Positions 16,067 through 51,452 of a DNA stretch of 54,473 bases are shown here, piece after piece. Location of the stretch: assembly GCA_038059415.1 (NCBI GenBank), contig JBBTJN010000007.1, positions 1 to 54,473 of the forward strand, read 5' to 3'. Source of the DNA: Elusimicrobiota bacterium. GTDB taxonomy: Bacteria; Elusimicrobiota; Elusimicrobia; UBA1565; UBA9628. How positions within the stretch are numbered: position 1 is the first letter of the stretch; each line of letters begins with the position of its first letter. Below the pieces are notes generated by a model that saw only the letters and a list, made by a program, of their open reading frames with translations, did not search any database and was not told the origin of the DNA. Position numbers and translations under genes: made by a program.

Positions 16067-16105
16067 GGAGAGGTGGCCGAGCGGTTTAAGGCACCAGTCT
16101 TGAAA
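16067..16105 (+). repeat. attL: 39-nt stub identical to nt 1-39 of tRNA-Ser(UGA), not a functional tRNA
   Basis: GGAGAGGTGGCCGAGCGGTTTAAGGCACCAGTCTTGAAA is identical to 51230-51268. Similarity stops after the anticodon loop. Confidence 0.9.
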
Positions 16106-19211: not shown

Positions 19212-19214
19212 GGT

Positions 19215-20243
19215 TCAAATCTCCTTGGCCAGGCGCTCGAAGCTCCAGAGATCGGCGTGCCCGGGACCAGTTCGGCCCTTCAACGAGCATTGTGTTTCGG
19301 TGACGATGATTACGTTTGTTTTGGTGCTCCATCGAGCCCAGGCAGCAGTTTCCAGGGCCTTGGTGAAGATCAGCACTGTGAAGTCCGTCCGTGCGAGGGC
19401 GGCCTCGATGACCGAGTTTACATGCTCATCCACGAAAGCGTATCCGATGCACACTAGTCGATTTATGGGGGTGGCGTTGTGCCCTAAACAACCACGAAAC
19501 GTAGACCATAGATTCGAGTATGGTGGGGTCATCGTATCGACAGCCTTCCGACGCTGAGGCGGAATCATGAGCCGTTTGGTGGAGGTGGGTGGGCCAGCAT
19601 CGAATCGAGACCGCCGAATGCCATTGGTCGGGCATTCATACCAGCCGAGTGAACCATGGAGCTTCAATAGATGGAGGGGCTTGACGGTTTCGTCAAACTG
19701 CTTGCCCTTATGTGTTCCTCGTATCCGCCCGACTCGCTCCTCAAACACGGCAGGATCGAAGAAGGAGTTCTCCGAGCCAAGAAAGCCATCGACAATGCGA
19801 ATCCGGGCGTGTGCTGCCGCTCGTTCAATGAGTGGATCATAGTTCAGGCTGAAGATCTTGGCGCACGGGTCAGCTCGCTGAGAGACTCGCCGAACGAACT
19901 CGCTGTGCAAGTCGAGAGAGGGTGTCTTGGTCATTAGCAGCTCTGCTAATGCTGCCGTCACCAGGTGACGATAGGGCGTGTCGTTCGCCCCGCCATCATC
20001 AAGCAAGTCAAGAGCGTGTTCGAGTCCACTCGCGCCGTTAGTTAGCTTGGCTTGGATCTCATCCCGCTTTGTGGTATCCGAGATTCGGTCCTTAATGAGA
20101 TTCCACAGTTGGAACGCAAGAGGGTATCCCGCACCGTTGAGGTATGAGGACCCTGCGCCAAGGAGATAGCCGACACGCTGAGACTTGAGTTGCTGAGCAA
20201 CCTTTGTCTCGAGGTCAGAAATGAAATCGGCTGCGGGGCTCAT
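19215..20243 (-). CDS. SIR2-family protein (SIR2_2 type), defence-associated
   Basis: GAGSS, SLNYDPLIE and KLHGSLGWY motifs. The start is placed at MSPAADF; the ORF is open to 20360, which would remove the promoter region. Confidence 0.8.
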   Translation of the reverse strand: MSPAADFISDLETKVAQQLKSQRVGYLLGAGSSYLNGAGYPLAFQLWNLIKDRISDTTKRDEIQAKLTNGASGLEHALDLLDDGGANDTPYRHLVTAALAELLMTKTPSLDLHSEFVRRVSQRADPCAKIFSLNYDPLIERAAAHARIRIVDGFLGSENSFFDPAVFEERVGRIRGTHKGKQFDETVKPLHLLKLHGSLGWYECPTNGIRRSRFDAGPPTSTKRLMIPPQRRKAVDTMTPPYSNLWSTFRGCLGHNATPINRLVCIGYAFVDEHVNSVIEAALARTDFTVLIFTKALETAAWARWSTKTNVIIVTETQCSLKGRTGPGHADLWSFERLAKEI

Positions 20244-20375
20244 TTTGTCGTGGCATCGAGGTGAGATTCTATCATTTACAATATTTTCGAGATTCGTCCG
20301 ACGAGAGCGGAGCGTCGCTATCGTATACATGGTGACAACAGCGCCGTCAAACGAGTACAATCTTCCCTAGAGAAG

Positions 20376-20594
20376 ATGGCTACCCAAATTCAATTGCCTC
20401 ACCCCACGGGCAAGGATTTCTACACCACGGTTCAAGTGGCAGAAGTTCTCGGGTACACGATTCAACATACTCGGTGGTTGATACGGACGAACCGGCTGAA
20501 CGCTGTTAAGGTCGGAAGAGACTGGTTAATTCCGCAGGCTGGAGTAGCGAGCTATCTTGCTGCCAGGGCCTCGGACAAACAGCCACGCCATTGA
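20376..20594 (+). CDS. Excisionase-family (HTH_17) DNA-binding protein, possible R-M controller
   Basis: YTTVQVAEVLGYTIQHTRWLIRTNRLNAVKVGRDWLIPQAGVASYL. Confidence 0.7.
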   Translation: MATQIQLPHPTGKDFYTTVQVAEVLGYTIQHTRWLIRTNRLNAVKVGRDWLIPQAGVASYLAARASDKQPRH

Positions 20595-20604
20595 GGAGAG
20601 AACT

Positions 20605-21570
20605 ATGACTACCACTACTGTCCGACCTCGTCCCAAGACCAAGGCCCCGACCAACCAGCTCGTGTTGCAGTCACCGACCCATGCGCCGGCACCAGTCCTG
20701 GCTGCTGGTTTACAGAAAGAGGTGAAGCCGAAAGGGGTTGTCCATCCGCGTAATCCGCTGAATGATCTGACTGCAACGGAGTGGATTCCCGAGACGGTGT
20801 CTGTTTGGAACCAGCGTGGACTTGGGGCGAATCACGCTGATGCTCAGATTGAGCGTCAACACCCGGCGCCGTTTTCTTTTACTGACGTTGCGCGCTTAGT
20901 CCGGTTCTTCACGAAGAAAGGACAGATTGTATTGGATCCCTTTGTTGGTGTCGGCTCTACGCTGAAAGCCTGTGCTCTTGAACAACGTCAGGGAATAGGT
21001 TTCGAGTTGAACCCTAAGTACGCTGAGCTGGCAAAGAAGCGTCTCCAGCTCGAAGTGCCGGATAAAGCTGCCGTCGCCCAGCAGAAAGTGGTTAAGGGCG
21101 ACTGCCGTACGCTTGTCGCTGCTTTACCCGAGAACAGCATTGATTTCGTGGTAACGAGCCCACCGTACGCCGCGATCCTTCACAAGGAGGATCACAAGGT
21201 CCGACAGGAGAGAACGGACCGGGGCTTGGATACGCGCTACAGCGACAACAAGAAGGACTTCGGCAATATCAAAGACTATCCGAAGTTTCTTGATCAGCTC
21301 GCTGAACTCCTTGGCGGATGCGCGAAGGCGCTTAAGCCGAAGAAGTATATGGCCGTTGTTGTTGGAGACTTCCGCGAGAAGTCAAAGTACGTGATGTTCC
21401 ATGCAGACTTGGCGAATGCCCTCTCGAAGTATTCCCTGGGTGTTCGTGGCATCACTGTGCTCTATCAGCGGCACAAACGGGTGTTCCCGTATGGATATCC
21501 TTACGCCTTTGTTCCGAACATGCACCATCAATTCATTGTGATCCTGCAAAATGAGAAGACAGCAAAGTAA
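20605..21570 (+). CDS. DNA methyltransferase (N4-C/N6-A type), motif order I then IV
   Basis: HPAPFSF..VLDPFVGVGST (AdoMet motif) precedes VVTSPPY (catalytic motif). GAGGAGAG RBS. Confidence 0.85.
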   Translation: MTTTTVRPRPKTKAPTNQLVLQSPTHAPAPVLAAGLQKEVKPKGVVHPRNPLNDLTATEWIPETVSVWNQRGLGANHADAQIERQHPAPFSFTDVARLVRFFTKKGQIVLDPFVGVGSTLKACALEQRQGIGFELNPKYAELAKKRLQLEVPDKAAVAQQKVVKGDCRTLVAALPENSIDFVVTSPPYAAILHKEDHKVRQERTDRGLDTRYSDNKKDFGNIKDYPKFLDQLAELLGGCAKALKPKKYMAVVVGDFREKSKYVMFHADLANALSKYSLGVRGITVLYQRHKRVFPYGYPYAFVPNMHHQFIVILQNEKTAK

Positions 21571-22357
21571 GCCCATCGGAAGCGGCATAGTTGTTGGTGA
21601 CTGCATCGAGGAGCTTCGGAAGCTCCCGGATGCCTGCACTAATTTGATTATTGCCGACCCTCCTTACAATCTCAACAAGGACTTTGGGCTTTGGAAAGAA
21701 TCAGAGCATCGGCACGAATGGTTCGATTGGTGTAAGAAGTGGCTGACGGAGTGCAAGCGGATCCTTCGCCCCGAGGGCAACATCTTTGTCTACGGCATTC
21801 ATCACCATATCTGTTGGATCCAGTGTTTTCTCTACGAGCAGGGCCTCGACTATAGACGCCTTATTGTCTGGAACTATGAGAATGGGTTTTCCGGCTACAC
21901 CCGCAGCCTTTCAGCGCACTATGAGCCGCTTCTGTGGTTTTCCGCTGGCCCGAAGTATATCTTTCATCCGATTCGTGAGCCTTATAAGAGCCTGGAACGC
22001 CTCAAGTACAAGGTGATCAAGAACGGGAAGACTTGGCAACCGAACCCCGAGGGGCGGATGGCCGGCGACGTGTGGAGATTCCCTACTCTTGCGGGGAGAC
22101 GTTTCCGAGATGAGAAGGTGGCTCATCCGACGCAGAAGCCACTCTCTATCTCCCTGCGAATTGTAAAGCACTTTTCAAATCCCGGAGATTTGGTCGTCGT
22201 TCCGTTTGCGGGAAGCGGAACCGAGTGCGTCGCGGCCAAGCAACTGGGGCGTGAGTACCTGGGATTCGACCTTAACTCCAAGTATGCTGAGATCGCCCGA
22301 GAGCGCATCCGAACGGCCATCGCTGCACCTGCAGACAAAGCTACTTCGCTGCTTTAA
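21551..22357 (+). CDS. DNA methyltransferase (N4-C/N6-A type, beta class), motif order IV then I
   Basis: IIADPPYNL lies near the N-terminus. HPTQKPLSI..VVVPFAGSGTE lies near the C-terminus. Confidence 0.88.
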   Translation: MRRQQSKPIGSGIVVGDCIEELRKLPDACTNLIIADPPYNLNKDFGLWKESEHRHEWFDWCKKWLTECKRILRPEGNIFVYGIHHHICWIQCFLYEQGLDYRRLIVWNYENGFSGYTRSLSAHYEPLLWFSAGPKYIFHPIREPYKSLERLKYKVIKNGKTWQPNPEGRMAGDVWRFPTLAGRRFRDEKVAHPTQKPLSISLRIVKHFSNPGDLVVVPFAGSGTECVAAKQLGREYLGFDLNSKYAEIARERIRTAIAAPADKATSLL

Positions 22358-23474
22358 GCCAACCCCTGTAGCCTTTCCCATCTTCCGGCGTTCTCCCAAG
22401 CGTTGCGCTTAGGCCTGTTGCGATTGACTGGTTGTCGGCATCGGCATAGAAGCTCACTACGCCGCCGAGCTTCAACTTGTGCCGCTCCCAGACAAGGAGG
22501 AGCAGCGCTCCAACCGTGAGAGATTGGATTCGAATCCCAAGTATTTCCTGAACATCCTTCACGACGCGCCAGTATTCCGACCTCGCATTGGGAAAAGAAA
22601 GAGTCACGATAGCGGGCGTGATCTCCTCAAGCTTCCCCTTGTGCCGGGAGACTAACACGGCGCAGCTATCCAGTATGCTTCGAGGCGAATCAAGAGTGGC
22701 TCCCTCGGAGAACTCCACTTCTGCGGTGCCCACCGATGTCGAATGGAAGGCCGCATCCATCCGAACGTTCGTGTCGCCGTGGCGACGCATCTCCCATGAG
22801 ATACCAAGCGCCCTCATTAGATTTCTGACGAGGAGATTCGGGAATTGTGCGGATATGCCGCGAGGCGGGTGAGTCAGGTGTTCGTAGATTGCCTCTAAGA
22901 AGTTCTCGCCGCGCTCGACGATCGTTCCTTTGACGGCAGCTTTAGCGAATACCCGCGCAATCTCGTCCGTGTTCTTCTTCTCAACTGCTCGAGTAGAAAG
23001 AACGAATCCCTCGTTCGGCCTGTCGTTCACGACTGCGCCTTTTGTAGTCAACGTGATAGCGGAGACAGGGCAGCGAACCACACAGAGGCCGCATGTTATG
23101 CATGACGGCGCGGATATCATCGGGACACCCGTGCGCTCATCAAGCTCCATGGCATTCGTTGGGCAAACATCTGGCGTCGTATCCGCTGGGAATGCCGCTA
23201 GGGCAGCTGAGGTTTTGTCCTCTGCGGTGTATCTCATGCACGGGGTATCAGGACAATGGATACAGGAGCCCGCGACTTCGATCCCGCCCTTGAATTTAAT
23301 GCGCGACGGCACGCCCAGCCCGCCATGAATAACCTCAAGCGGGACGCTAGTGAGGTCCTTGCCCTTAATGAGTGCCGTGGACCGCTTAAGGATTTTCAAT
23401 TTCGAGCAGTCCTCGCAGGTGCAGGATGGCGTCCTTGTCCGGAGCGCGTCCAAACAGGACCTTCGATACTGCAA
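22341..23474 (-). CDS. 4Fe-4S ferredoxin-domain protein with an uncharacterised C-terminal domain, co-oriented with the endonuclease
   Basis: CIHCPDTPC..DVCP and CITCGLCVVRCP cluster motifs, followed by about 230 aa without a motif I recognise. The start is uncertain because the ORF overlaps the upstream gene by 89 nt. Confidence 0.6.
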   Translation of the reverse strand: MQYRRSCLDALRTRTPSCTCEDCSKLKILKRSTALIKGKDLTSVPLEVIHGGLGVPSRIKFKGGIEVAGSCIHCPDTPCMRYTAEDKTSAALAAFPADTTPDVCPTNAMELDERTGVPMISAPSCITCGLCVVRCPVSAITLTTKGAVVNDRPNEGFVLSTRAVEKKNTDEIARVFAKAAVKGTIVERGENFLEAIYEHLTHPPRGISAQFPNLLVRNLMRALGISWEMRRHGDTNVRMDAAFHSTSVGTAEVEFSEGATLDSPRSILDSCAVLVSRHKGKLEEITPAIVTLSFPNARSEYWRVVKDVQEILGIRIQSLTVGALLLLVWERHKLKLGGVVSFYADADNQSIATGLSATLGRTPEDGKGYRGWLKAAK

Positions 23475-25086
23475 GGCGAATCAATGTTCGGAAGTCGATC
23501 ACGCCAATTGAGAGTTTGTAGGTCGAATGGATATCAGAGATCAGCGAAGAGACTTCGGAGCGGTCATTCGGGGGCTCGTACCCTACCGCCAAGCTGGCTG
23601 CAGTTCGCGTCGTTGGAACATAGCGGCGGGCGAGGAGGACGACCTTATTCTCGAGAGCTTGTCGGACCCCTTTCACAGAAAGGAACTCTTCCTCTCCCGG
23701 CGATTTGATCTCAATCGGGACCGACTCTTTCGCGTCCTTGATGAGTGCGTCCATTCGCTGATAGTTCACGCCCGCTCGAGAGCACGTGCAGTCGAAGCCC
23801 AGAATCTTAAAGAGGTCTGCTACCGCTGGGTAGAAAGTGGCCTTCCCGGCGCCTCTAAATGATTCGAATATGGTGTCCGCAATTTTGTCGATGCCGAGCT
23901 TCCGGTCGGCCTCTTTGATTTGGGCAGCGATTGGCGAGCTGTCCACGGGAGCCCTGCTCTTGTCAGTGCTAAGCCGAACCTTGGCTATCAGCGGGGTACG
24001 CGCTGATCCTGCGGCAGCATCTTTGGCAACTCCAAGGCCGGGGCTAGTGCTGCGCGTAGAACCTTCTGAATAGGGCGGGAAAGCTTTGCGGAGAAGATCT
24101 GGCGCACACTCTTGGAAGGGTGAGAATAAGAGGCGGCTAGCATCTCTGACTTTGAGTTTCGCCGTCAAAATTCCGCAGGTCGCGGCAAGTGCTGCGGGCT
24201 TCTCGGCAACGTCCGCCAACGAGAAGCCTGAAATCGCCATCATCTGGTAGAAGGAGAGTTTTATGAAGGCAAGGGCCTCGGGTTCTCGCGCAGACCCAAG
24301 ATCCGAGCAGCGCACGTCAGTTGCATTTTGAACCCTTTGGGCAGCGGCATCGCCGCTTCCCGTGAGGACATATTCGACTCCCCGCCCGTCTCTAGCCGGC
24401 ATTGCCCAGCCCGCCCAGCGCAACACCCCGAGAGGGAACCTCGTGTAGTTCTGGAGAGTGTTGAGCTGGATCTTAATCTCAGAGGCGAACTTATTTACGG
24501 CCGCATCTGTCCCGTTCGTTTCACGAAGGCGTCGAATGCGCTTGATTGCGTGCGCAACCTCTTCATCATCTCGATCATCCTCCAACTGCAGGGGCCCAAG
24601 AATGATCTCGTCACGAGAGATTTTCCCATCCAGCTCTCGCGCCATGCGCAGGATAGTCGCTATCGGCCGGACTTTGTGAGCGCCCTTCACCTCAACGTGG
24701 GGGTTCGGGTAGCTGATGTGGAGAATGCACTCGCGAATTAGCTTCTCCAGGATGCCGGGGTCCATTGCGATGTGGGCGCCCAGATAGGTGAAGTTGAATT
24801 CCTGTCGATTGTCCGGAAGGCTATGAATCCAGCCCAGGATGCGGAAGAGTTCGGAATACATCTTTGACTGGTTGAAGAGGGGATCGCGGCTACGGTCCTT
24901 ACGCGTGCTTCGGAGCAGGGCTTCGTCGCCGATGTGCCCGGACGAGGTCGCCAGGTTGCTATCCACGAGTGCTTGAGACATGTCGTCAAGCGTGAAGCTG
25001 GGCAGCGTTCGGAGCGCCTGGAAAAGCGCCTTGAATATTCTAACGAACGCAGCAATGTCCGAGCCGGGATTCGGGAAGCGCAGCAC
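23386..25086 (-). CDS. Putative restriction endonuclease (large type II/IIS-like, possibly AlwI-family)
   Basis: Candidate PD-(D/E)xK catalytic motif MDALIKDAKESVPIEIKSPG near the C-terminus. 566 aa, convergent with two methyltransferase genes. Confidence 0.55.
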   Translation of the reverse strand: MLRFPNPGSDIAAFVRIFKALFQALRTLPSFTLDDMSQALVDSNLATSSGHIGDEALLRSTRKDRSRDPLFNQSKMYSELFRILGWIHSLPDNRQEFNFTYLGAHIAMDPGILEKLIRECILHISYPNPHVEVKGAHKVRPIATILRMARELDGKISRDEIILGPLQLEDDRDDEEVAHAIKRIRRLRETNGTDAAVNKFASEIKIQLNTLQNYTRFPLGVLRWAGWAMPARDGRGVEYVLTGSGDAAAQRVQNATDVRCSDLGSAREPEALAFIKLSFYQMMAISGFSLADVAEKPAALAATCGILTAKLKVRDASRLLFSPFQECAPDLLRKAFPPYSEGSTRSTSPGLGVAKDAAAGSARTPLIAKVRLSTDKSRAPVDSSPIAAQIKEADRKLGIDKIADTIFESFRGAGKATFYPAVADLFKILGFDCTCSRAGVNYQRMDALIKDAKESVPIEIKSPGEEEFLSVKGVRQALENKVVLLARRYVPTTRTAASLAVGYEPPNDRSEVSSLISDIHSTYKLSIGVIDFRTLIRLAVSKVLFGRAPDKDAILHLRGLLEIENP

Positions 25087-25685: not shown

Positions 25686-25734
25686 AGCTGCACCCAGTTT
25701 TACCCATCGGCAGCGCGACAAGTTCATAAAAGGG

Positions 25735-25831
25735 TCATGGATGCCTTTAGAATGACCTAGGAGCTCTTGTCCATAGTCCCTTGAAGTTTTGGTCGGCCAA
25801 ATACCCTATAAGTCGATATCGCTCGAAATAG
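25735..25831 (+). repeat. Island repeat copy 1 (~97 nt core; similarity extends about 22 nt further left)
   Basis: TCATGGATGCCTTTAGAATGACC..CCCTTGAAGTTTTGGTCGGCCAAATACCCTATAAGTCGATATCGCTCGAAATAG. Nearly identical to copy 4. Confidence 0.9.
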
Positions 25832-25847
25832 ACTACCTGTGCAGGTG

Positions 25848-25887
25848 TTCAGGTAGCTCTAGGCCACCTCGTATACTTAGACGAATG
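25848..25887 (+). promoter_or_regulatory. Candidate promoter TTCAGG-N16-CGTATA, with an ATG 8 nt after the TATACT box
   Basis: Read directly from the sequence. A 7-bp hairpin (25833-25839/25850-25856) overlaps the -35 position. Confidence 0.35.
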
Positions 25888-28825: not shown

Positions 28826-29061
28826 GAGTTTCGGGAAATCGCAAAGAGGAACCTATGAAGAATTGTCCTTTCTGTGCTGAAGAGATCCAGGCCACTGCGA
28901 AAGGGTGGCAAGTTTGGTGTCAATCCGGATGGCAAGTCCCGTACCTGCGCTGACCGCCGGCTTGCGCATCCTCCACTTGCTGACGGCGAGTGAACTCTGA
29001 CACTTTGACAGTTTGTCAGAAGCCCCAACCCCCTCGCAACGCGACAAGCTCAATAAAAGGG

Positions 29062-29158
29062 TCATGGTTGCCCTTAAAATGACATTAGAGAAGAGCAAGG
29101 TAGACCCTTGAAGTTTTGGTCGGCCGAATACCCTATAAGTCAATATCGCTAGAAACAG
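29062..29158 (+). repeat. Island repeat copy 2
   Basis: TCATGGTTGCCCTTAAAATGAC..CCCTTGAAGTTTTGGTCGGCCGAATACCCTATAAGTCAATATCGCTAGAAACAG. Confidence 0.9.
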
Positions 29159-29198
29159 TGCAAGGATGCGTTCCTCCGGCGTCCGGCGTCTTAGGGCT

Positions 29199-29215
29199 CG
29201 TATAGATGTTTTGTG
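29199..29215 (+). promoter_or_regulatory. CTCGTATAGA box 7 nt upstream of the ligase GTG (candidate leaderless promoter)
   Basis: CGTATA at 29199-29204 and GTG at 29213. Confidence 0.35.
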
Positions 29216-30458: not shown

Positions 30459-30514
30459 GCCACGGCTGGAAGAATTTGGAATCGCCGGCTTCCGAGCGCA
30501 AGAGAATTAAATCA

Positions 30515-30610
30515 TCATGGATGCCTTTAAAATGACATTAGAGAAGACTTACTCGGTCCATTGAAGTTTGGTCGGCCGGAAACCCTATAAGTCAATCTCG
30601 CTTGAAATAG
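30515..30610 (+). repeat. Island repeat copy 3
   Basis: TCATGGATGCCTTTAAAATGAC..CCATTGAAGTTTGGTCGGCCGGAAACCCTATAAGTCAATCTCGCTTGAAATAG. Confidence 0.9.
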
Positions 30611-30627
30611 GGCTGGGAAGGCTCTCT

Positions 30628-30646
30628 CGTATATTGGGTGAGGATG
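30628..30646 (+). promoter_or_regulatory. TCTCGTATATTG box, with GTG 3 nt and ATG 9 nt downstream
   Basis: CGTATA at 30628-30633, lying 18 nt after repeat copy 3. Confidence 0.35.
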
Positions 30647-30880
30647 GAAGCGCGTCGAGGTCTCAGGGTGGCGTTCCACTGTTTCGACTGCCTCCAGGAA
30701 TCTTTAGTACCCGGAAGGAAATACAGGCGGACAGAGCCCGCGTGCCAAAGCTGCTATGGCGACCTCTTTCGAGGCACGCGGGATGATTTCATGCGCCTCG
30801 TCGCTAGCGTCGCCCGGAAGAACCTCGATAAGTCGGTTGGGACGATGATTCGCGTGCGCCTGCCCACATGTAGGAACTGA
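30638..30880 (+). CDS. Small zinc-ribbon-like protein (two CxxC pairs)
   Basis: HCFDC and CQSC pairs. The start is GTG 30638 or ATG 30644 (MEARR...). It lies directly upstream of the sigma factor gene. Confidence 0.45.
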   Translation: MRMEARRGLRVAFHCFDCLQESLVPGRKYRRTEPACQSCYGDLFRGTRDDFMRLVASVARKNLDKSVGTMIRVRLPTCRN

Positions 30881-30905: not shown

Positions 30906-30946
30906 TGAAGGTTCTGATTTGTCGCTTCGTATATCTGTATTCCATG
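30906..30946 (+). promoter_or_regulatory. Candidate ECF-type promoter of the sigma gene: TGAAGG-N16-CGTATA, with the ATG 9 nt after TATATC
   Basis: TGAAGG at 30906-30911, CGTATA at 30928-30933 and ATG at 30944. Confidence 0.45.
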
Positions 30947-31501
30947 GGCGACGGCAGTCAGCAGATCGGATTCATCGAACAGCTCATACTTCGAGAGACG
31001 CCGAGTGCCTATCGCGTGGCGATGAGCCTGACGCGGAACCCTGAGGCCTCAAAGGAGCTTGTTCAGGAAGCCTCCTACCGCATTCTCCTCAACCAGCGGG
31101 CCTTCAACGCATCCCGGTCCGGAACAGCCTGGTTTCAAGCTGTTGTCCGCAACCTGTTCATCGATGGGCGCCGGAGCTTCGAATATCGGCGCGGTGTCTC
31201 GTTGAGTCAGACGATCGTCGCTGATGGGCCCTGCTACAGCGAACTGCTGCCGAGCGATGAGCCTGGGGTGTTGGAGCAACTCGAGCGAGGGGAAGACAGC
31301 CGGGCTGTGCGTCGAATCACGAACAGGCTCCGTAAGGAGCATAAAGAAGTCCTCAAGCTCTGTGACATGCAGGCGTTGAGCTACGAAGAGGCGGCTGGGG
31401 TTCTGGCCGTTTCAGTCGGGACAGTTCGTTCAAGACTATTCCGTGCTAGACGGGCGTTCCGTTTACTCTGGGCCAAGGAGAATCTCGCGCATGGTGGATG
31501 A
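30944..31501 (+). CDS. ECF-type sigma-70 family RNA polymerase sigma factor
   Basis: Region 2 (ASKELVQEASYRILLN..AWFQAVVRNLFIDGRR) and region 4 HTH (LSYEEAAGVLAVSVGTVRSRLFRARRAF). Confidence 0.85.
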   Translation: MGDGSQQIGFIEQLILRETPSAYRVAMSLTRNPEASKELVQEASYRILLNQRAFNASRSGTAWFQAVVRNLFIDGRRSFEYRRGVSLSQTIVADGPCYSELLPSDEPGVLEQLERGEDSRAVRRITNRLRKEHKEVLKLCDMQALSYEEAAGVLAVSVGTVRSRLFRARRAFRLLWAKENLAHGG

Positions 31502-32468
31502 CTGCATTTTTAAGAATGGGTACCTGACGCCTACTGGCGTCAGGGTTTATTCATCGCTCGCTCATAATATTCCAGGCATCGACCTGGATTCGAGCAATGA
31601 CCAGATCTCGGATCTGATCTGTAAGTACGGAGAACGATCTAAGTCCTTGCTGTCTGAACACAGCGAGGATAGCCTGACCTTTACAACCTTTCATGCGCTG
31701 AGCAAGTTGCCAACGAAAGATTGGCTTGTTGATTTCTTCCGTGCGGCCTTCGGGCCCAAGATTGCCGCGGCTTATGCGCCCTACGTGAATGAAGCTGTCC
31801 TAAGATTTTGGCAACCCCATAGCAGCCCGAATCTGTATCTCGAGTACTTGGCCAAAAAGATTTCACGTGAGGGTGAGTCAGCGCTCAAGCACCTCGACGC
31901 AGGATCGCGCGTCAGGGCCAAGCAACGACTCCAAAAGCTCCTTTCCGGTGAGCTTGAGTGGGGCGAGCAACCGACTGAGGTTGATGTGCAGATCACTATC
32001 GGTAAAAAATTGATCATCTTTGTCGAGGTCAAGGTCTATTCCGACATCGGCAAGTTCGGGACCTTGAACGGGACGGATAACCGGAATCAAGTCATCCGTA
32101 ACCTCGAGGTGGTTTCGGAGGTCAAGCAGCGCCTCGGGTTCGAGGATGCCAAACTCGTGCTCCTGACTTTAGATCGCGCTTCGGACAAGCTGTACTCCCA
32201 ATCCATGCGGCGCTATCGAGGACCCGATTTGCGGAAGATGCGGATGTGGGATGAGGTCACGCCCGGCTGGGAGAGAATCCGAAAGGACCTGCCTCACCGA
32301 GCGGATGAGAGCCCGGAGTGGCACCAGCGTCTGAACACGTCGCTTGGCTGGGTAATCTGGCCGGAAATGGTCAAGATTCTTGTCGCAGGGTACAGCCGGC
32401 TATGGCGTAACGTGGCCCTCCAGATGGATGATCTTCCCGCATCAAATGATATTGCTGCCAGTCGATAG
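31491..32468 (+). CDS. Hypothetical protein with a PD-(D/E)xK-like motif
   Basis: TEVDVQITIGKKLIIFVEVKVYSD. The start overlaps the sigma stop by 11 nt. Confidence 0.45.
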   Translation: MVDDCIFKNGYLTPTGVRVYSSLAHNIPGIDLDSSNDQISDLICKYGERSKSLLSEHSEDSLTFTTFHALSKLPTKDWLVDFFRAAFGPKIAAAYAPYVNEAVLRFWQPHSSPNLYLEYLAKKISREGESALKHLDAGSRVRAKQRLQKLLSGELEWGEQPTEVDVQITIGKKLIIFVEVKVYSDIGKFGTLNGTDNRNQVIRNLEVVSEVKQRLGFEDAKLVLLTLDRASDKLYSQSMRRYRGPDLRKMRMWDEVTPGWERIRKDLPHRADESPEWHQRLNTSLGWVIWPEMVKILVAGYSRLWRNVALQMDDLPASNDIAASR

Positions 32469-32733
32469 GGCAGTTCGGGCGACTCTTCCCTTCGTCCTCG
32501 GGTTGGTCTTTACAACCTTGGCGGCGCTGCAGAGTGGGCATAACGTACGAGGCCTCTGGCGCAGATCGTTTCTAACGTCACTGGGGCTGGGGACCTGTCA
32601 GTTTCTCATGGTGCAGTGGGCCGTGCGACAGGGCCTGGAGTTCTGGATCTTCCAGGCCGGAGCTGCGGTCGGCGCCGCGGTTGGAAGTTTCCTGGTGGCT
32701 CGGGGCATCCTGGGTCGAACGGCAAGCCCATGA
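32446..32733 (+). CDS. Small membrane protein (2-3 predicted TM helices)
   Basis: Hydrophobic stretches LPFVLGLVFTTLAAL, LGLGTCQFLMV and AGAAVGAAVGSFLVA. The start is uncertain (32380, 32428 or 32446). Confidence 0.4.
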   Translation: MILLPVDRAVRATLPFVLGLVFTTLAALQSGHNVRGLWRRSFLTSLGLGTCQFLMVQWAVRQGLEFWIFQAGAAVGAAVGSFLVARGILGRTASP

Positions 32734-32951
32734 AGCGCCGGGAGAAACGGGTTCAGGGGGCCGAGTGTCCGGCTTGCAACGGACAGGGGAAGGTCTGCTG
32801 CGTGACATGGGCCGTGGCAAGGGGGAACGCCGGCTCGGACCTGGAGTACAGCGGGATCGGACTACCGCTCTGGCCGCTCGGGTCCCATCTCGAGATGACA
32901 CGATGCCCGTTCTGCGGGAAGGGATTTACTCCTTCGGGAAGAAGAAGCTGA
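32730..32951 (+). CDS. Small zinc-ribbon protein (73 aa)
   Basis: CPACNGQG and CPFCGKG pairs. ATGA overlap with the preceding ORF. Confidence 0.45.
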   Translation: MKRREKRVQGAECPACNGQGKVCCVTWAVARGNAGSDLEYSGIGLPLWPLGSHLEMTRCPFCGKGFTPSGRRS

Positions 32952-33156
32952 GAGGCTTGCCGTATAACTTAGACATGCGCCGAAGCTCGATGATGTCCAG
33001 GCGACGCTCGCCCGACTCCATCTTTGAGACGAAGGATTGCGGCTTCCGCAGCTTGCTGGCCACCTCGACCTGGGTCAGCTTGGCCGCGACACGGGCTTCC
33101 CGCAGCTTTCTGACAATGTCCCGGTGCTCTGCCGTAAAAATAGTCTTTGATTTCAT
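32926..33156 (-). CDS. XRE-family HTH transcriptional regulator
   Basis: LREARVAAKLTQVEVASKLRKPQSFVSKMESGERRLDIIEL. An alternative ATG lies at 33162. Confidence 0.85.
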   Translation of the reverse strand: MKSKTIFTAEHRDIVRKLREARVAAKLTQVEVASKLRKPQSFVSKMESGERRLDIIELRRMSKLYGKPLSFFFPKE

Positions 33157-33157
33157 G

Positions 33158-33180
33158 CCCATCCCTTGACATGGGATGGG
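33158..33180. promoter_or_regulatory. Perfect 8-bp inverted repeat CCCATCCC-TTGACAT-GGGATGGG around a TTGACA -35-like hexamer; candidate XRE operator
   Basis: Read directly. It lies between the XRE start and the divergent lipoprotein gene. Confidence 0.5.
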
Positions 33181-33240
33181 TCAGCCTATATCCTTTTATC
33201 CAATATCCATAAACGGGATATTTCAAAGGAGTGCAGCGTA

Positions 33241-36824: not shown

Positions 36825-36841
36825 CGTATATTGGTAGGGTG
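36825..36841 (+). promoter_or_regulatory. CTTCGTATATTG box 7 nt upstream of the GTG at 36839
   Basis: CGTATA at 36825-36830. Confidence 0.35.
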
Positions 36842-37408
36842 AGGCTCGGCTCTTCCGCCTTTATCGTGCAAATCCTGCGGGACCATCTCTTCGCAGGGGA
36901 GCGAGTGCTCCGCGAGCGAGCCGCGGAGTTCCTCAGTAAAACGCGATCCCGCGCGGTAGTCCGTAAGCTCGCACGAGCTCTCAGTTCTCCGCGGGACTAT
37001 GTTTCCACCCGAGCGGCCTGGGGGCTCACCCTCTGCAAGGATGACCTCGCCATAGACTTGCTCGAAAGGGCACTGAACGGCGGGAATGAGCGGATTCGTT
37101 CGCAGGCGTCATGGGCTCTCGGGCGGATAGAGAATCCCCGAGCTATGAAGGTGCTCGTATCCGCCTTGGAAAGCCCCAGACGAGCTGTGTACGCTCAAGC
37201 GGCTGCGGGACTTTGGCGAGCGGCGGTAAACGGATACCGAAGCGCGCAGGTGGAACGAACACTCATAGGTCTACTGAAGCGTGATAAAGGTCAAGTCGCG
37301 CTCACGCTGAGCCACATGCTCCGAAATCGGACGAGCCCGCCTCGAAAGAGACCTGCCACGGCGGTTCTAACCGCGTTCGAGCGGCATGGCGGCTCCTGGA
37401 TCCGGTAG
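36839..37408 (+). CDS. HEAT-repeat protein (short, no signal peptide seen)
   Basis: Repeats of the type R..A.WALG.I..P.A...L. GTG start. Confidence 0.6.
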   Translation: MRLGSSAFIVQILRDHLFAGERVLRERAAEFLSKTRSRAVVRKLARALSSPRDYVSTRAAWGLTLCKDDLAIDLLERALNGGNERIRSQASWALGRIENPRAMKVLVSALESPRRAVYAQAAAGLWRAAVNGYRSAQVERTLIGLLKRDKGQVALTLSHMLRNRTSPPRKRPATAVLTAFERHGGSWIR

Positions 37409-37409
37409 G

Positions 37410-37453
37410 CCATGAAGAATACCGGCTACGCGATTCCGTATAGAAATAGTGCA
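37410..37453 (+). repeat. Degenerate fifth copy of the 3' half of the island repeat, containing TGAAGA-N18-CGTATA
   Basis: CCATGAAGAATACC..CCGTATAGAAATAGTGCA versus copy 2 CCTTGAAG..GAATACC..CGCTAGAAACAGTGCA. The last 14 nt match at 13 of 14 positions. Confidence 0.5.
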
Positions 37454-37735
37454 CCTAAAACAACGCCGGAGATGTTTCCGGACGCAAGCATTAGGGGATC
37501 GACGTGGTGCACCGATCGCTTGCGAAGTGGCCCGGTGGAGGACCCATACCGCCAGATCACAACTCTCAGCGAGAGATCGTCGCTGCCAGGCCCCACGAGT
37601 GCCTGCGAGTCCGGGAGTATGGCCACTAACGAGCGGCAGGCGGCTCCCCGCGAAGAAACTCTCACGCATCGAAAGTACTCGACCCTGGTAGGTAGGGGTT
37701 AGTAGCTCGGTGCGCCCAACCGACAGATAGTAGTT

Positions 37736-39034
37736 ATGTTTACCTCGAGCCTCTTCGACACGACGCCGACGCGGGAAGCTCAGCTCGAGCAGATTCGGCA
37801 GATGTACCAGCTTCCTCCCGACCATGAGTTTATCCCTGTGGAGCTGCGCGTCGCCGAGATGCTCCGCGAAGCGGGAGCGCGGGGCCTTCGCGTCGACAGC
37901 GACATCCTTACCTCGGAAACCGCCAAGGTCGAAGCCGAACTCAGCGTCTTGCAGCGTGATATCGATCGGCTGGCGCGGCATTCTGTCAGGGTAGGCTCAT
38001 CGGCGGACCTCGCCCAGCTCCTATTCAACGAGCTTGGGTTTCCTTGCGCGAAGCAGACGCGCAAGGGCAAGCCTTCATTCGGCGTCGAGGCCCTCAAGAA
38101 GTACGCCCACCCCGTCGCCGCCCTGATTTCCAAATGGAAGTCCGCCCGCTCCACGTTGAGTTTCCTACAGGTGATGCGCTCATACCTCCTCGATGGGCGG
38201 ATTCGCACGGAGTTCCTTCCCTGGAACTGCCCGACCGGCCGCATCTACTGCCGCGACCTCAATCTCCAGCAGGTGCCAGCGCCTGGATGCCGCGCCATCG
38301 TCCCGGACCCGGGCATGGTCTTCGTCTACGGGGACTTCGACCAGGCCGAGCTCCGAATCATGATGGCGCTCGCCAGCGAAACCCGCTACTACGCGGCTCT
38401 CCAAAACGCGGATATCCATATCCTTACAGCCGCCGCCGTCTTCGCCGTCGCCGAGTCCGCCGTCACGGACGCGCAGCGCGATGTCGGCAAGATGGTAACC
38501 TACGCGGTCTCCTACGGCGTCTACCCAACCTCATTGGCCTTCCGGCTCGGCATCAGCCGGCTGCACGCCGAGGACTACATTGCCCGCTACTTCTCGGCGC
38601 ATCCTCGTCTTGCGACTTGGATGGAGGAGCGTCGTGCTTCCGCCCGTGCTTGTGGGCATACCTCCACGCTCTTCGGCCATCGCCGGGACCTGCGCTCGGT
38701 GCGCGACTTTGGCTCGCGGGACCGTATGGCCGTCAACACGGCGGTCCAAGGTGCCCAAGCCGGCTATTTAAAGCTCGCCATCAAGCGGGTCGGCGAGGAG
38801 TTCGCTCAGGCCATGCCCTCGGCCCAGTTCATGATGACGGTCCACGACTCCATCCTCCTGCAGGTCCCCGAGGCCCAAGCCGATGAGGCCGCAGACCTCC
38901 TCCGGCGCTGCATGCGCTTCGATCTGCCCAACCCCGCTCCCGATGGGCCGCTACAACTCCAGGCCACCGTATCCTCCGGGCGCTCCTGGGCCGCCGTCGC
39001 CCACGACGAGCCCATGCTCCCCGCCGCTGTCTGA
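37736..39034 (+). CDS. Family A DNA polymerase, polymerase domain only (432 aa, no exonuclease domains)
   Basis: Motif A DFDQAELRIMMA, motif B RDVGKMVTYAVSYGV and motif C TVHDSILL (HDS instead of the usual HDE). Confidence 0.8.
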   Translation: MFTSSLFDTTPTREAQLEQIRQMYQLPPDHEFIPVELRVAEMLREAGARGLRVDSDILTSETAKVEAELSVLQRDIDRLARHSVRVGSSADLAQLLFNELGFPCAKQTRKGKPSFGVEALKKYAHPVAALISKWKSARSTLSFLQVMRSYLLDGRIRTEFLPWNCPTGRIYCRDLNLQQVPAPGCRAIVPDPGMVFVYGDFDQAELRIMMALASETRYYAALQNADIHILTAAAVFAVAESAVTDAQRDVGKMVTYAVSYGVYPTSLAFRLGISRLHAEDYIARYFSAHPRLATWMEERRASARACGHTSTLFGHRRDLRSVRDFGSRDRMAVNTAVQGAQAGYLKLAIKRVGEEFAQAMPSAQFMMTVHDSILLQVPEAQADEAADLLRRCMRFDLPNPAPDGPLQLQATVSSGRSWAAVAHDEPMLPAAV

Positions 39035-39077: not shown

Positions 39078-39093
39078 CGTATACCAATTCATG
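39078..39093 (+). promoter_or_regulatory. CTCCGTATACC box 6 nt upstream of an ATG (39091); probable promoter of the Dam-like gene
   Basis: CGTATA at 39078-39083. The methyltransferase ATG at 39128 has its own GGAGGG RBS. Confidence 0.35.
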
Positions 39094-42434: not shown

Positions 42435-42595
42435 TAGGCAATAGGCCGACCACATCATGACGGAGAAGTGCTAACCAAGGGGTACCGTCAAAAAGGTATA
42501 GCTACAGCGAATCCTGCGTGGGCTCAATCGTGCTTCGTTCCCGCCCCGTAAAGTATTTCCAGTCCCGATGGTGCCGGGAAAGTTTAATGGATTAG

Positions 42596-42692
42596 CTCTG
42601 GATGGCTTTAGATTGACCTAGGAGCTCTTGTCCATAGTCCCTTGAAGTTTTGGTCGGCCGGATACGCTATAGGTCAATCTCGCTAGGAATAG
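42596..42692 (+). repeat. Island repeat copy 4
   Basis: CTCTGGATGGCTTTAGATTGACCTAGGAGCTCTTGTCCATAGTCCCTTGAAGTTTTGGTCGGCCGGATACGCTATAGGTCAATCTCGCTAGGAATAG. Confidence 0.9.
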
Positions 42693-42879
42693 GCCTCCCG
42701 TTCGTTGAAACAGGCCGCAGCTCCAAATCAGCCGCCGGCGATGCTCCCAATCCCATCGTAGGCGCTAAAGGGTGTGATCGTCCCCGGTTTCGATGCTATT
42801 GGCGGGCACCTCGTGCGAGCAACTCGGCGCTCGCTCCGTGACGATGGGGGCACCGACGAAAAGGTATATAGGCAGTGGG

Positions 42880-42960
42880 GAGGTAGGTCTTATTTAACGT
42901 ATTGGTTTATACAGATACCCACTTCAATGAGGTAGTTAGTAGTGTTAATAGATTAGGTTT
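42880..42960. other. Locally AT-rich tract with short TTAGTAG/TTAATAG-type repeats; candidate replication origin or unwinding element
   Basis: GGTCTTATTTAACGTATTGGTTTATACAGATA..GTAGTTAGTAGTGTTAATAGATTAGGTTTA stands out in a GC-rich context. Confidence 0.3.
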
Positions 42961-42982
42961 ACGTCGGCTGGGATGTTAATCG

Positions 42983-43021
42983 TGCAGGACGCGATGGCCG
43001 TCTCCGTATATTGGGAGCATG
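42983..43021 (+). promoter_or_regulatory. TGCAGG-N16-CGTATA, with the ATG 7 nt after TATATT (leaderless DUF2958 gene)
   Basis: TGCAGG at 42983-42988, CGTATA at 43005-43010 and ATG at 43019. Confidence 0.4.
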
Positions 43022-49614: not shown

Positions 49615-50025
49615 ATGAAAGCGAAGGGACAAGACGACGAGAGCAATCCGTATATCATCGATGGATGGAAGGGCTATGTGCCGGCTTTACCGGCTTTTAA
49701 GTCAGGCCACCAGGAATTCAAGCTGGTCTACGAGGATGGTCGCCTCATCGAATCGGTTGAGGTCCCTACCTCAGCGCCCACCGCCGCCGCCAGTTCGGCC
49801 CCGGGAGTCTTGCCAGTGCCTGCGGCTCCTCAGGATGGGTGGCTAAGCATGAGGCAGGCGGCTGGAAAGATGCGGCGTTCGTACTCCTGGTTTTCAAGGA
49901 ATTGGAGGGGGATGGGCTTTCACCCCACAGCTGGTCGTCCGCTGCTATTTGAAGAGAAGGAAATTGAGGGGTACTTGCAGGGACATCGAGTCCGGCGATC
50001 CCGAGGCAGGCCCAGAAAGGCGTAA
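49615..50025 (+). CDS. Excisionase-like HTH protein (candidate Xis/RDF)
   Basis: C-terminal WLSMRQAAGKM..GRPLLFEEKEIEGYL is HTH_17-like. The gene lies immediately upstream of the integrase. Confidence 0.5.
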   Translation: MKAKGQDDESNPYIIDGWKGYVPALPAFKSGHQEFKLVYEDGRLIESVEVPTSAPTAAASSAPGVLPVPAAPQDGWLSMRQAAGKMRRSYSWFSRNWRGMGFHPTAGRPLLFEEKEIEGYLQGHRVRRSRGRPRKA

Positions 50026-50031
50026 GAATTT

Positions 50032-51087
50032 ATGGCCAAGAAAGGTCCACGTAAACTTGAGGTTCCATACACGGGGAACGGGATGGTGCGCTTCGAGTAC
50101 CATCACAAGGAGAAGTATGTCCGTCGGCTAATTTCCCTGGACGCCCTCACGGAATTCCTGACGGGTCAGTCCAATCCAAGGTCAAATATGGGCGAGGGGA
50201 CCACGCCCGTTGAGCTTGAGGCGTTTATAAGCCAGGAATATTTGCCGCGGTGTGCCAGGCCGCGGTTTACGAATGATCGTTCTTATAACGCCGAGCGAGA
50301 TCTGGCCCATGCGCTGATTCGCACATTAGGCAAGATTCCTTTGCATGAGATCCGCTCCCGGCACTCCGAAGACCACAAGGACGGGCGGCTTGGGGCAGGG
50401 AGGGCCAATAACACCATCAAGAGGGAACTTCGTTGCCTCAAGCGCGTTTTAGATTATGCCGTCGCGAAGGGGCGCGTGCAGGAAAACCCGCTCCCGCCGG
50501 TGAGGGGGCTCACCTCTGCAACGCGAAGGGAAATCTGGTTGAATAAGGCTGAAATCGACAAGTTGGTCGGCTGCTGTCCCGATGAGCTTAAGCCCCTCGT
50601 GGAATTCTTGGTGTTGACGGGGGCTCGCATAAGGGAGGCGTTGGATTTACAAGAGGGTGATATCGATGTGGAGAAGGGCATCCTCCGCATCCCGACGCAG
50701 AAGAGACGAAGGTCGCCCCGTGCGGCGATGCGTAAATTCGAGATCGCGACGTTGGGGGGCAGATTCCAGCGGTTGATGGCGCAGATGGTTCCGCATCCTG
50801 AAACGAAGAAGTATTTCCACTTCGACAGGCACGGGGACATGTCGTATAGCTGGGTGAGCAAGCTGTTCCGAGAGGCGAGGAGCAAAGCGGGCTTCAAGGA
50901 CATAAAAATTCATGATTTAAGGGGCTCGTTCTGCATGCACAGGGCGGTCGTGGTTAAGGACTTCCGGACATTGCAGCAGGAGATGGGGCATGCGAGCCCA
51001 AGCTCCATTCAGAGTTATTTGGACAGCGCAGACCACCTGGATCGTGCGGATTCGATTTTCACGGACGAGGCGCCAGTTGGAGCCTAA
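50032..51087 (+). CDS. Tyrosine recombinase / phage-type integrase
   Basis: TGARIREAL (Arg), HDLRGSF (His-x-x-Arg) and GHASPSSIQSYL (His..Tyr). It is adjacent to a tRNA gene. Confidence 0.9.
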   Translation: MAKKGPRKLEVPYTGNGMVRFEYHHKEKYVRRLISLDALTEFLTGQSNPRSNMGEGTTPVELEAFISQEYLPRCARPRFTNDRSYNAERDLAHALIRTLGKIPLHEIRSRHSEDHKDGRLGAGRANNTIKRELRCLKRVLDYAVAKGRVQENPLPPVRGLTSATRREIWLNKAEIDKLVGCCPDELKPLVEFLVLTGARIREALDLQEGDIDVEKGILRIPTQKRRRSPRAAMRKFEIATLGGRFQRLMAQMVPHPETKKYFHFDRHGDMSYSWVSKLFREARSKAGFKDIKIHDLRGSFCMHRAVVVKDFRTLQQEMGHASPSSIQSYLDSADHLDRADSIFTDEAPVGA

Positions 51088-51229: not shown

Positions 51230-51316
51230 GGAGAGGTGGCCGAGCGGTTTAAGGCACCAGTCTTGAAAACTGGCGACGTGTAACAGCGTCCGTGGGTTCG
51301 AATCCCACCCTCTCCG
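51230..51316 (+). tRNA. tRNA-Ser (anticodon UGA), 87 nt with a long variable arm; CCA not encoded
   Basis: Manual fold. Acceptor GGAGAGG/CCTCTCC. Anticodon stem CCAGT/ACTGG with loop CTTGAAA. Variable-arm stem GACG/CGTC. T arm GTGGG-TTCGAAT-CCCAC. Confidence 0.9.
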
Positions 51317-51452
51317 CCGATTTTTCCATAGGAATTAAGGATGCTTGGGTCTTGGTGTGTTCGTAACCCTCACTGCGCGACTTTGCTGGATTCGGCGCTA
51401 TGGTGATCGTCACCACCTTCCTCGCCCCACCCCTGCTGAAGAAGTCCCTGTC

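Follow-up and report, generated by a model that had tools for sequence, protein, structure and literature searches.

A predicted sigma regulon on a tRNA-integrated island of an Elusimicrobiota bacterium, and a repeat that resembles its promoter

Mobile islands with anti-phage systems tend to be treated one gene at a time, and little is known of how they are activated. The stretch of DNA considered in this study (hereafter the window: positions 1 to 54,473 of contig JBBTJN010000007.1, assembly GCA_038059415.1) comes from a member of the Elusimicrobiota, a phylum of which very few members have been cultured and in which, as far as I know, promoters have yet to be mapped. Within it lies an open reading frame that resembles the gene of an ECF sigma factor, along with several strings that resemble promoters for such a factor, one in front of the gene itself and others within the copies of a repeated element. 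The original prediction joined these into a sigma regulon belonging to a mobile island, in which promoters inside every copy of the repeat would switch on all the cargo modules together. The question raised by the locus is therefore whether the sigma factor has a regulon of its own and, if so, where the promoters of that regulon lie. The promoters discussed below are predictions made from sequence.

The window holds an integrative element of 35 kb, from position 16067 to 51268, inserted at a gene for tRNA-Ser (Table 1). A perfect direct repeat that originates from the tRNA gene marks the two ends, the gene for a tyrosine integrase adjoins the intact tRNA-Ser, and the GC fraction is about 0.55 in the element, as compared to 0.62–0.70 in its flanks. 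By these three characteristics (direct repeat, adjacent integrase and shift in composition), the element is a tRNA-integrated genomic island. Its genes encode a SIR2-like protein, HerA, two DNA methylases, a phospholipase C-like protein, an ATP-dependent ligase, the sigma factor, an XRE-type repressor, HEAT-repeat proteins, an S1/P1 nuclease, a family A DNA polymerase, a Dam methylase, an MCM-like helicase and a DUF5131 protein. Among the ORFs run against Pfam, ten of which were also run against PHROGs, none was recognised as a virion gene; several ORFs found no match. The SufS protein of the host shares 82–88% identity with proteins of Elusimicrobia MAGs, which places the host in the Elusimicrobiota.

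Table 1. Coordinates of features of the island, in positions of the window. Spacers are given as N followed by their length; PWM scores are from a matrix trained on other loci.
Feature	Position	Strand	Remarks
Left end of island, displaced 5' fragment of tRNA-Ser	16067..16105	+	39-nt perfect direct repeat with 51230-51268
Possible CGTATA promoter	20322..20327	+	-35 TCCGACG; 48 nt upstream of HTH_17/methylase operon; weaker
Repeat copy 1	25725..25845	+	box TGAAGT-N17-CCTATA at 25782-25810
CGTATA box upstream of phospholipase C/PHP-like module	25870..25875	+	some 25 nt downstream of repeat copy 1; PWM 14.4 bits
Repeat copy 2	29052..29172	+	directly upstream of ligase promoter; box at 29109-29137, N17
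Ligase promoter	29173..29204	+	CCTCCGGCGT-N16-CGTATA; 8 nt before GTG 29213; PWM 19.3 bits
Repeat copy 3	30505..30623	+	canonical position, upstream of zinc-ribbon promoter; box at 30562-30589, N16
CGTATA box of zinc-ribbon gene	30628..30633	+	fixed distance from repeat copy 3
78-aa C4 zinc-ribbon protein	30644..30880	+	true start ATG 30644
Sigma-operon promoter	30906..30933	+	-35 TGAAGG 30906-30911, 16-nt spacer, -10 CGTATA 30928-30933
ECF-type sigma factor, 185 aa	30944..31501	+	Sigma70_r2 and Sigma70_r4_2; TIGR02937
324-aa orphan protein	31494..32468	+	start overlaps sigma stop; weak PD-(D/E)xK nuclease-like core
73-aa protein	32730..32951	+	last conserved gene of sigma operon; DnaJ-like CxxCxGxG zinc motif read from sequence
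XRE-family repressor-like gene	32926..33162	-	conserved in all sister islands
Sigma-70-type promoter TTGACA-N17-TATCCT	33158..33194	+	overlapped by inverted repeat CCCATCCC-N7-GGGATGGG
CGTATA box of 189-aa HEAT-repeat gene	36825..36830	+	8 nt before GTG 36839; PWM 15.6 bits
CGTATA box heading conserved candidate structured RNA	37437..37442	+	conserved in six loci
Candidate structured non-coding RNA	37449..37735	+	about 290 nt, 13 helices; conserved; absent from Rfam
CGTATA box upstream of Dam methylase gene	39078..39083	+	7 nt before ATG 39091; orthologous in L019
Repeat copy 4	42586..42706	+	before AT-rich non-coding stretch and replication module; box at 42643-42671, N17, GCTATA
CGTATA box at head of replication module	43005..43010	+	8 nt before ATG 43019, 101-aa ORF
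CGTATA box before 61-aa ORF upstream of integrase	49649..49654	+	6 nt before ATG 49661
Tyrosine integrase	50032..51087	+	Pfam Phage_integrase
Intact tRNA-Ser(TGA)	51230..51318	+	first 39 nt are the right-end direct repeat

To compare the island with its relatives, I retrieved eleven related loci. Those labelled L001–L005, L069 and L085 are elements of the same kind as the island in the window, to which L083 and L084 are related more remotely. In the elements of the same kind, a common order of genes runs from the variable cargo through the ligase gene, the small zinc-ribbon gene and sometimes RadC to the sigma gene, the gene for a 324-aa protein, that for a small zinc protein and the XRE gene on the minus strand, followed by the HEAT genes and so onward to the integrase. 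The variable cargo in the sister islands includes GmrSD, AIPR, Z1/DUF4420, Hachiman, a UvrD-like protein and type I restriction-modification.

The identification of the ECF sigma factor was borne out. The protein contains Sigma70_r2 at residues 15–78 and Sigma70_r4_2 at residues 120–171, and it scores 67.5 bits against TIGR02937, for which the cutoff is 42.9. It does not pass as an ortholog of SigW, scoring 49.8 bits against TIGR02948 (cutoff 243.1) and 54.2 against PRK09641 (cutoff 209), and none of the equivalog models in NCBIfam, SigW included, reaches its cutoff. The clade to which the protein belongs is small and known from metagenomes only: there are 12 cluster representatives at 55–86% identity and a few at 38–49%, after which come generic ECF sigma factors at about 35%. 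No close relative was found in phage databases, where the best matches are 25–28% identical.

The sigma gene is translationally coupled to the gene for the 324-aa protein, an orphan with 24 relatives that, in the sister islands, is better conserved than the sigma factor. Residues D165, E179 and K181 are invariant. An AF2 model of the protein (mean pLDDT 84) finds its best Foldseek matches, all of them weak, in LmuA (E 0.0095, TM 0.26), the Hachiman system and then restriction enzymes. A sequence-profile search of the PDB found no match, and phage databases contain no relative of the protein. The model weakly suggests that the partner of the sigma factor is nuclease-like, with a PD-(D/E)xK-like fold.

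A cognate anti-sigma factor is typically, but not universally, co-transcribed with an ECF sigma factor, and the small zinc-ribbon proteins on either side of the sigma gene had been put forward as candidates. One of them, the 78-aa protein, is kept upstream of the sigma operon or RadC-sigma operon in the sister islands. The HxxxCxxC motif that characterises zinc anti-sigma factors is missing from both it and the 73-aa protein, as judged by reading their sequences; neither of them matches an anti-sigma domain, and no such domain in Pfam or NCBIfam matches the genes downstream of sigma. Neither protein resembles an anti-sigma factor.

The promoter proposed in front of the sigma gene, TGAAGG-N16-CGTATA, is present and well supported. 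Its -10 element lies 10 nt upstream of the ATG. A string of the form TCTGA[AC]G[GA]-N16-CGTATA, that is, a GAA-type -35 element and CGTATA in exact spacing, is kept in all eight of the islands that carry the sigma operon. Between lineages (seven islands), identity amounts to 0.76 in the -35 zone, 0.45 in the spacer, 1.00 in the -10 element and 0.30–0.38 in the flanks. Conserved -35 and -10 elements set amongst a diverged spacer and diverged flanks are the classical footprint of a promoter, and the conservation is consistent with autoregulation. When the roughly 109,000 positions of the window were ranked by a PWM trained only on loci other than the window, this site came first (28.5 bits), followed by those of the ligase gene and the HEAT gene and by the box at 25870.

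As the ranking indicates, the signal is not confined to the sigma operon. About ten CGTATA promoter boxes are found in the window, all on the plus strand. What they share is an invariant (Y)TY-CGTATA, ending 5–10 nt short of the start codon (ATG or GTG) of genes that are first in their operons, with a looser -35 element (consensus YTCYGRMG, best form TCTGAAGG) exactly 16 nt upstream. The form of the -35 element depends on the class of gene (TCTGAAGG, TCTCCGRCG, CTTAGAAG or GAAT), its register fixed at 16 nt from the box. No constraint is seen on the two bases following TATA. The element is therefore CGTATA, as opposed to a hexamer similar to TATAAT, and this points to a sigma factor of the ECF type instead of the housekeeping factor. 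Amongst classes of promoters the -35 element differs considerably, and other factors may therefore serve part of the regulon.

The orthologous boxes are kept wherever the gene is present: in 7/7 cases for the ligase gene (the box at 29199 recurs in L003, L004, L005, L069, L085 and L084), 8/8 for the zinc-ribbon gene, 8/8 for the HEAT gene (the box at 36825 is orthologous in 7 loci) and 6/6 for the candidate structured RNA described below. In an unbiased count of hexamers at -22 to -3, CGTATA is the commonest, occurring at 7 of 15 first-in-operon starts. The plus strand of the island has 14 copies of the hexamer against an expected 2.4, the minus strand has three, and the host flanks have 1+1. 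None of the gene starts in the 19 kb of host flank has a CGTATA box.

The idea of a sigma regulon belonging to the island survives in part: many of the island's operons are headed by promoters of this type. It does not extend to the boxes inside the repeat, considered below, nor to all the cargo: the defence genes on the minus strand (SIR2-HerA, Fe-S and others) lack a preceding CGTATA box, in the window and the sister loci alike, and the claim that all cargo modules are switched on together was too broad. A promoter of a different type, similar to those of sigma-70, is found at 33167, facing away from the XRE gene. It is probably the point at which host polymerase enters the island early, under control of the XRE operator. 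No further half-sites of that operator were found above chance near the sigma-type promoters.

At ECF promoters of this type, transcription starts about 6–8 nt after the -10 element. The boxes end so close to the start codons that there is no room for a Shine-Dalgarno sequence, and hence the first genes of operons headed by CGTATA are predicted to have mRNAs that are leaderless or possess a few leader bases at most. Genes internal to the operons do carry GGAG-type ribosome sites.

One of the boxes does not head a protein gene at all. The string at 37413-37442 (TGAAGA-N18-CGTATA, plus strand) had been taken for a degenerate copy of the repeat, but an HMM of the repeat gives no match to it, and the -35 element conserved at this box is not in the TGAAGA-N18 register but is instead a GAAT 16–17 nt upstream of it. 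The site heads a conserved region of about 290 nt, beginning 6–8 nt after the box, that is a candidate for a structured RNA. Five sequences fold together into 13 helices (-82 kcal/mol) with 92.8% of the cells paired, and there are 10 compensatory pairs, compared to 4.9 +/- 1.5 in shuffled alignments (0/500 reach ten) and 1–3 when the partners are slid. The alternative that a protein gene lies downstream of the box was rejected, as the translation is rich in arginine and the reading frame is broken between loci. A search of Rfam with the window and three sister loci yielded only tRNA at the gathering threshold, a search with 37380-37760 yielded nothing at E<=1, and the 5' motif of the candidate was not found in viral contigs. 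The candidate RNA adjoins the gene for DNA polymerase. It is probably free-standing, since in L002 it is followed by another CGTATA promoter and not by the polymerase gene. That a non-coding structured RNA would start 6–8 nt after the box is an argument for taking the box as a signal for transcription rather than for translation.

There remains the repeat, within which most of the promoters of the original prediction were placed. The six promoter-like strings on which that prediction was built are all to be found on the plus strand where it had put them, and the degenerate pattern that describes them has six matches in place of the 0.13 expected, a number to be read with the knowledge that four of the six belong to copies of a single repeat and are not independent. 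The unit of the repeat measures about 115–120 nt instead of the 97 nt first given. The HMM, built from the four copies in the window, recognises true copies in sister islands only: L004, L005 (also L032), L019, L002, L003 (two copies), L069 and L085. In addition, L001 has a degenerate copy and L084 three that consist of the core alone. Searching genome, metagenome and viral collections with an 18-mer from the core gave 74 loci, of which the HMM accepts only L019, L032 and L069; the other matches are about as many as expected by chance for 17.5 specified bases.

The positions of the repeat are as characteristic as its sequence. Eight copies fill the 120 nt immediately 5' to the CGTATA box of the zinc-ribbon gene, at a fixed distance from it. 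A second conserved position, ahead of a non-coding stretch rich in AT and of the replication module, is occupied by copy 4 of the window and by copies in L002 and L019, and the remaining copies flank variable modules. The core of the repeat, TTGAAGTTTTGGTCGGCCG...TATARGTCAAT, is invariant, and the central segment is free to vary (0.43 identity). The 320 nt that follow copy 4 are conserved, and the indication that they form a structured RNA is weak (-27 kcal/mol, from two sequences only). Several kinds of promoter other than that of an ECF sigma factor were considered for the repeat. A scan for sigma-70 promoters found none within it; TTGAAG-N20-TATAAG, examined by eye as a possible exception, lacks the final T of the -10 element and has too long a spacer. 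Readings of the repeat as a MerR-type promoter with long spacer and as the -24/-12 elements of sigma-54 each fail for want of required bases.

The explanation that I favour, and judge on balance to be probable, is that the island has a sigma regulon served by CGTATA promoters and that the repeat is a separate conserved element whose box merely looks like one of them. It has to be weighed first against the possibility that the box of the repeat, TGAAGT-N17-CCTATA, is itself a working sigma promoter, in tandem with the CGTATA box downstream in each module headed by a repeat. There is something to be said for this. TTGAAG and a T-tract are invariant in 12 copies of the repeat, as are TTGARA and a T-tract in three distant ones; the distance of 16–17 nt to xxTATA resembles that of ECF promoters, and TATA is present in most copies, even those of the distant L084; all copies are intergenic and on the plus strand, almost all of them co-directional with the next gene; and the chance of finding such a box in an element of 115 nt is about 3e-4, by a rough estimate made before allowing for post-hoc choice. 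The box could conceivably be a weak or conditional promoter. However, the bases before TATA (or TTTA or TGTA) are CC, GC or GG, and in none of 16 copies, including three from L084, are they CG, which is invariant at every orthologous promoter. Amongst the 11 non-degenerate copies, identity is 0.92 in the "-35", 0.86 in the "spacer" TTTTGGTCGGCCG, 0.78 in the "-10" and 0.83 in the block after it, so that the spacer is better conserved than the -10 element, the opposite of the footprint of a promoter. The boxes score at background by the PWM (about 1 bit or less, rank 112–678 of about 109,000), although the penalty for CC is inflated by the training sites having been found through a search for CGTATA. 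Outside the repeat, CCTATA shows no enrichment, there being five instances on each strand. Finally, a true CGTATA box already lies 39–62 nt downstream of the repeat box in copies 1–3, and about 330 nt downstream in copy 4. I regard a promoter in the repeat as rather unlikely, and the claim that every copy contains one as not sustained by these comparisons: the internal box is probably a look-alike and not a promoter of the regulon.

If the box is not a promoter, the repeat may yet act in other ways. It may be transcribed and its core function as RNA (as a leader or in processing or antitermination, for example), from a promoter at the invariant TAnnnT in its left half. The TA...T is indeed invariant in 12 copies (alignment columns 29–34), and the repeat can form a hairpin of 5 bp, UUUGG-UCGG-CCRRA, in which changes are only between A and G, preserving U-A or U-G pairs, and in whose loop falls the one-base deletion of the distant copies. 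That small hairpin (-2.5 kcal/mol) is nonetheless all that RNAalifold finds, the other strand gives nothing, Rfam has no match, TAnnnT is not retained in the copies of L084, and no convincing -35 partner was found for it, all of which make the proposal very improbable. It is also improbable, if for different reasons, that the repeat is chiefly a landmark for recombination, with identical cassettes at the borders of modules enabling sister islands to swap cargo by homologous recombination, in which case the extra copies would call for no regulatory role in particular. Copies 1 and 2 of the window do bracket the phospholipase/PHP-like module, in L003 a second copy, CGTATA box included, adjoins the Hachiman cassette, and in L004 a UvrD-like gene has been inserted just to the left of the repeat. 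But a core of 45 nt that stays nearly invariant between islands whose sigma factors are 55–60% identical, with a central segment that does vary, requires some sequence-specific function. A quite different alternative leaves the repeat aside and supposes that the CGTATA boxes serve a sigma factor of the host, for instance a chromosomal ECF factor, the island's own having another set of targets. L084 offers some encouragement, as it has four CGTATA-N8-9-ATG boxes and three cores of the repeat but lacks a sigma gene within the 21 kb retrieved (MGTU01000025.1, positions 182575-203492), and so does L083, which still uses CGTATA with a sigma factor only 34% identical. In the case of L084, the sigma gene may lie elsewhere in the island, or a host factor may be able to read the box. 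Against a host factor stand the lack of boxes at gene starts in the host flank, the finding that the best match to the consensus belongs to the sigma factor's own operon in all eight islands having that operon, and the co-occurrence of the motif with the sigma clade, the motif being absent beside the more distant homologs of L006–L008. I consider this alternative highly unlikely.

The favoured explanation, a sigma regulon with CGTATA promoters, may be compared with systems already known. The consensus of promoters of the SigW type in Bacillus subtilis is TGAAAC-N16-CGTATA, and the promoters of the island are similar in having a -35 element containing GAA, a spacer of 16 nt and an identical -10 element, as well as a sigma gene behind a putative promoter of its own. 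They differ in that the sigma factor is not an ortholog of SigW and no membrane anti-sigma factor of the RsiW type is encoded downstream, in that the promoters abut start codons and so predict leaderless mRNAs, and in that the system is carried by a mobile island of Elusimicrobiota.

A parallel in logic is DdvS of Myxococcus xanthus, an ECF sigma factor that switches on a defence island of CBASS and CRISPR-Cas through four DdvS-dependent promoters, is expressed from its own promoter, and is held by DdvA, a transmembrane anti-sigma factor with a CHAT protease module (PMC11506125). Common to the two are a single ECF sigma factor, a promoter of its own (predicted here) and a few further promoters of matching sequence, on an island linked to defence. 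Unlike those of DdvS, the sigma-type promoters of this island head core genes (ligase, replication and RNA) and not the defence cargo on the other strand, and Pfam and NCBIfam reveal no anti-sigma factor similar to DdvA encoded near the sigma gene. Phages provide a third comparison, for example phiEco32, whose gp36, with its partner gp79, is a phage-encoded sigma factor that takes over middle and late transcription (PMC12276001). Here as there, a mobile element brings a sigma factor, in this case most likely to redirect the core polymerase of its host to the element's own promoters, and the sigma-70-type promoter at 33167, with its XRE-type operator, could act first, as in the cascades of phage sigma factors. 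In contrast to phiEco32, no virion genes are recognised in the island, and the partner is a nuclease-like orphan rather than a factor of the gp79 type. Taken together, the absence of a recognisable anti-sigma factor, the targets predicted to be leaderless, the coupled partner that appears nuclease-like and the placement of the signal on core genes would set the island apart from the known systems.

How the parts might work together can be sketched as follows. The sigma factor of the island most likely steers the core RNA polymerase of the host to the CGTATA promoters. The operon that encodes it, together with the 324-aa nuclease-like protein and the small zinc protein, matches the consensus best, and the result would be positive autoregulation. 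Other members of the regulon would be the ATP-dependent ligase, the upstream zinc-ribbon gene, the HEAT-repeat gene, the candidate structured RNA of 290 nt, the gene preceding Dam, the start of the replication module and the small ORF ahead of the integrase. The ancestral site of the 115-nt repeat would be the 120 nt immediately 5' to the zinc-ribbon box. As a working guess, the repeat could be a platform for the binding of a regulator that gates entry to the sigma feedback loop, duplicated at the boundaries of modules by recombination. That the whole amounts to a self-contained programme (an ECF sigma factor without an anti-sigma factor, a nuclease-like partner, a leaderless regulon that includes an RNA, and a repeat that both gates the loop and marks the borders where sister islands trade defence and other cargo) is an attractive but doubtful proposition.

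The distinction between the true signal of the regulon and a persuasive look-alike in the repeat is of practical consequence, since it bears on any reporter based on the repeat. Comparison with eleven sister loci places the sigma signal on core functions of the island (ligase, replication and a new RNA) and not on its defence cargo. What the island would offer is a compact circuit that can be tested: one sigma factor, a sharp promoter (TCTGAAGG-N16-CGTATA) 5–10 nt from the start of the gene, and about ten targets.

Two stretches of non-coding DNA in the island are conserved among the related loci retrieved for comparison (sister islands, numbered with the prefix L), and their positions are collected with those of the other features in the table below. 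One, about 290 nt long and seen in the window and five sister loci, lies immediately 3' of a CGTATA promoter, the promoter-like signal shared by island operons. It is predicted to fold into 13 helices, with compensatory changes, and has no match in Rfam. The region, which adjoins the island DNA polymerase gene, is a candidate for a new structured RNA. The other stretch, about 320 nt and partly AT-rich, separates repeat copy 4 from the beginning of the replication module. It shows only weak RNA structure and, in the window and L002, holds no conserved ORF; it may be a replication origin.

Coordinates of features in the window island and its sister islands
Feature	Window	Sister islands
Conserved ~290-nt non-coding region	37449-37735	L085 14541-14857; L005 7479-7777; L002 14415-14700; L019 664-960; L003 15118-15315
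Conserved ~320-nt non-coding stretch	42706-43000	L002 17066-17400
Inverted repeat and sigma-70 promoter	33158-33194	
Spacer hairpin, Zn-ribbon gene promoter	30610-30627	
324-aa protein gene	31494-32468	
Small membrane-protein ORF	32446-32733	
73-aa Zn protein gene	32730-32951	
Direct repeat	16067-16105	
Intact tRNA-Ser	51230-51318	
Defence cargo, left part	16286-25086	L001 1-8967; L002 1-8554; L003 1-8257; L004 566-9496; L085 1-7097
Second repeat copy		L003 4409-4560

Diverging from the minus-strand, repressor-like XRE gene is a consensus sigma-70 promoter, whose -35 is covered by an 8-bp inverted repeat, CCCATCCC-N7-GGGATGGG. To judge from the sequence, this arrangement resembles a classical repressor-operator switch. 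The gene that follows has its true start at ATG 33242, with an AAGGAG site upstream. At the promoter of the Zn-ribbon gene, the 16-nt spacer of the window and of orthologous copies retains a small hairpin (GRGC-N7-GCYC), in which a single pair varies across islands as G-C, G-U and A-U. A conserved hairpin within a promoter spacer is unexpected.

In the sigma operon, the sigma stop codon is overlapped by the start of a gene for an orphan 324-aa protein, better conserved across sister islands than sigma itself. The orphan gives a weak match to the PD-(D/E)xK fold (LmuA/HamA-like), with D...ExK invariant. The operon ends with a 73-aa protein, kept in every close sister island, that bears a DnaJ-type CxxCxGxG zinc motif. 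Between these two genes the window has a small membrane-protein ORF. L001 has no space for it, because a gap of just about 40 nt separates the flanking genes there, and the other sister islands seem to have similar spacing. The ORF appears to be an insertion found in the window island alone.

The direct repeat of the island equals positions 1-39 of tRNA-Ser, i.e., its 5' part, and the integrase lies immediately upstream of the intact tRNA; therefore the element supplies the 5' half of the tRNA and its promoter. In the usual case, an integrating element supplies the 3' end.

The left part of the islands is a cargo hotspot. Each sister island carries different defence systems there (GmrSD/AIPR, Z1/DUF4420, Hachiman, UvrD-like or type I R-M) and the window carries SIR2-HerA; most of these systems are encoded on the other strand from the core genes. 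In L003 a second repeat copy has its own CGTATA box, set at the canonical distance, and all that follows is a start-codon-like stub. This copy adjoins the Hachiman cassette and looks like the footprint of a cargo insertion via recombination at the repeat.
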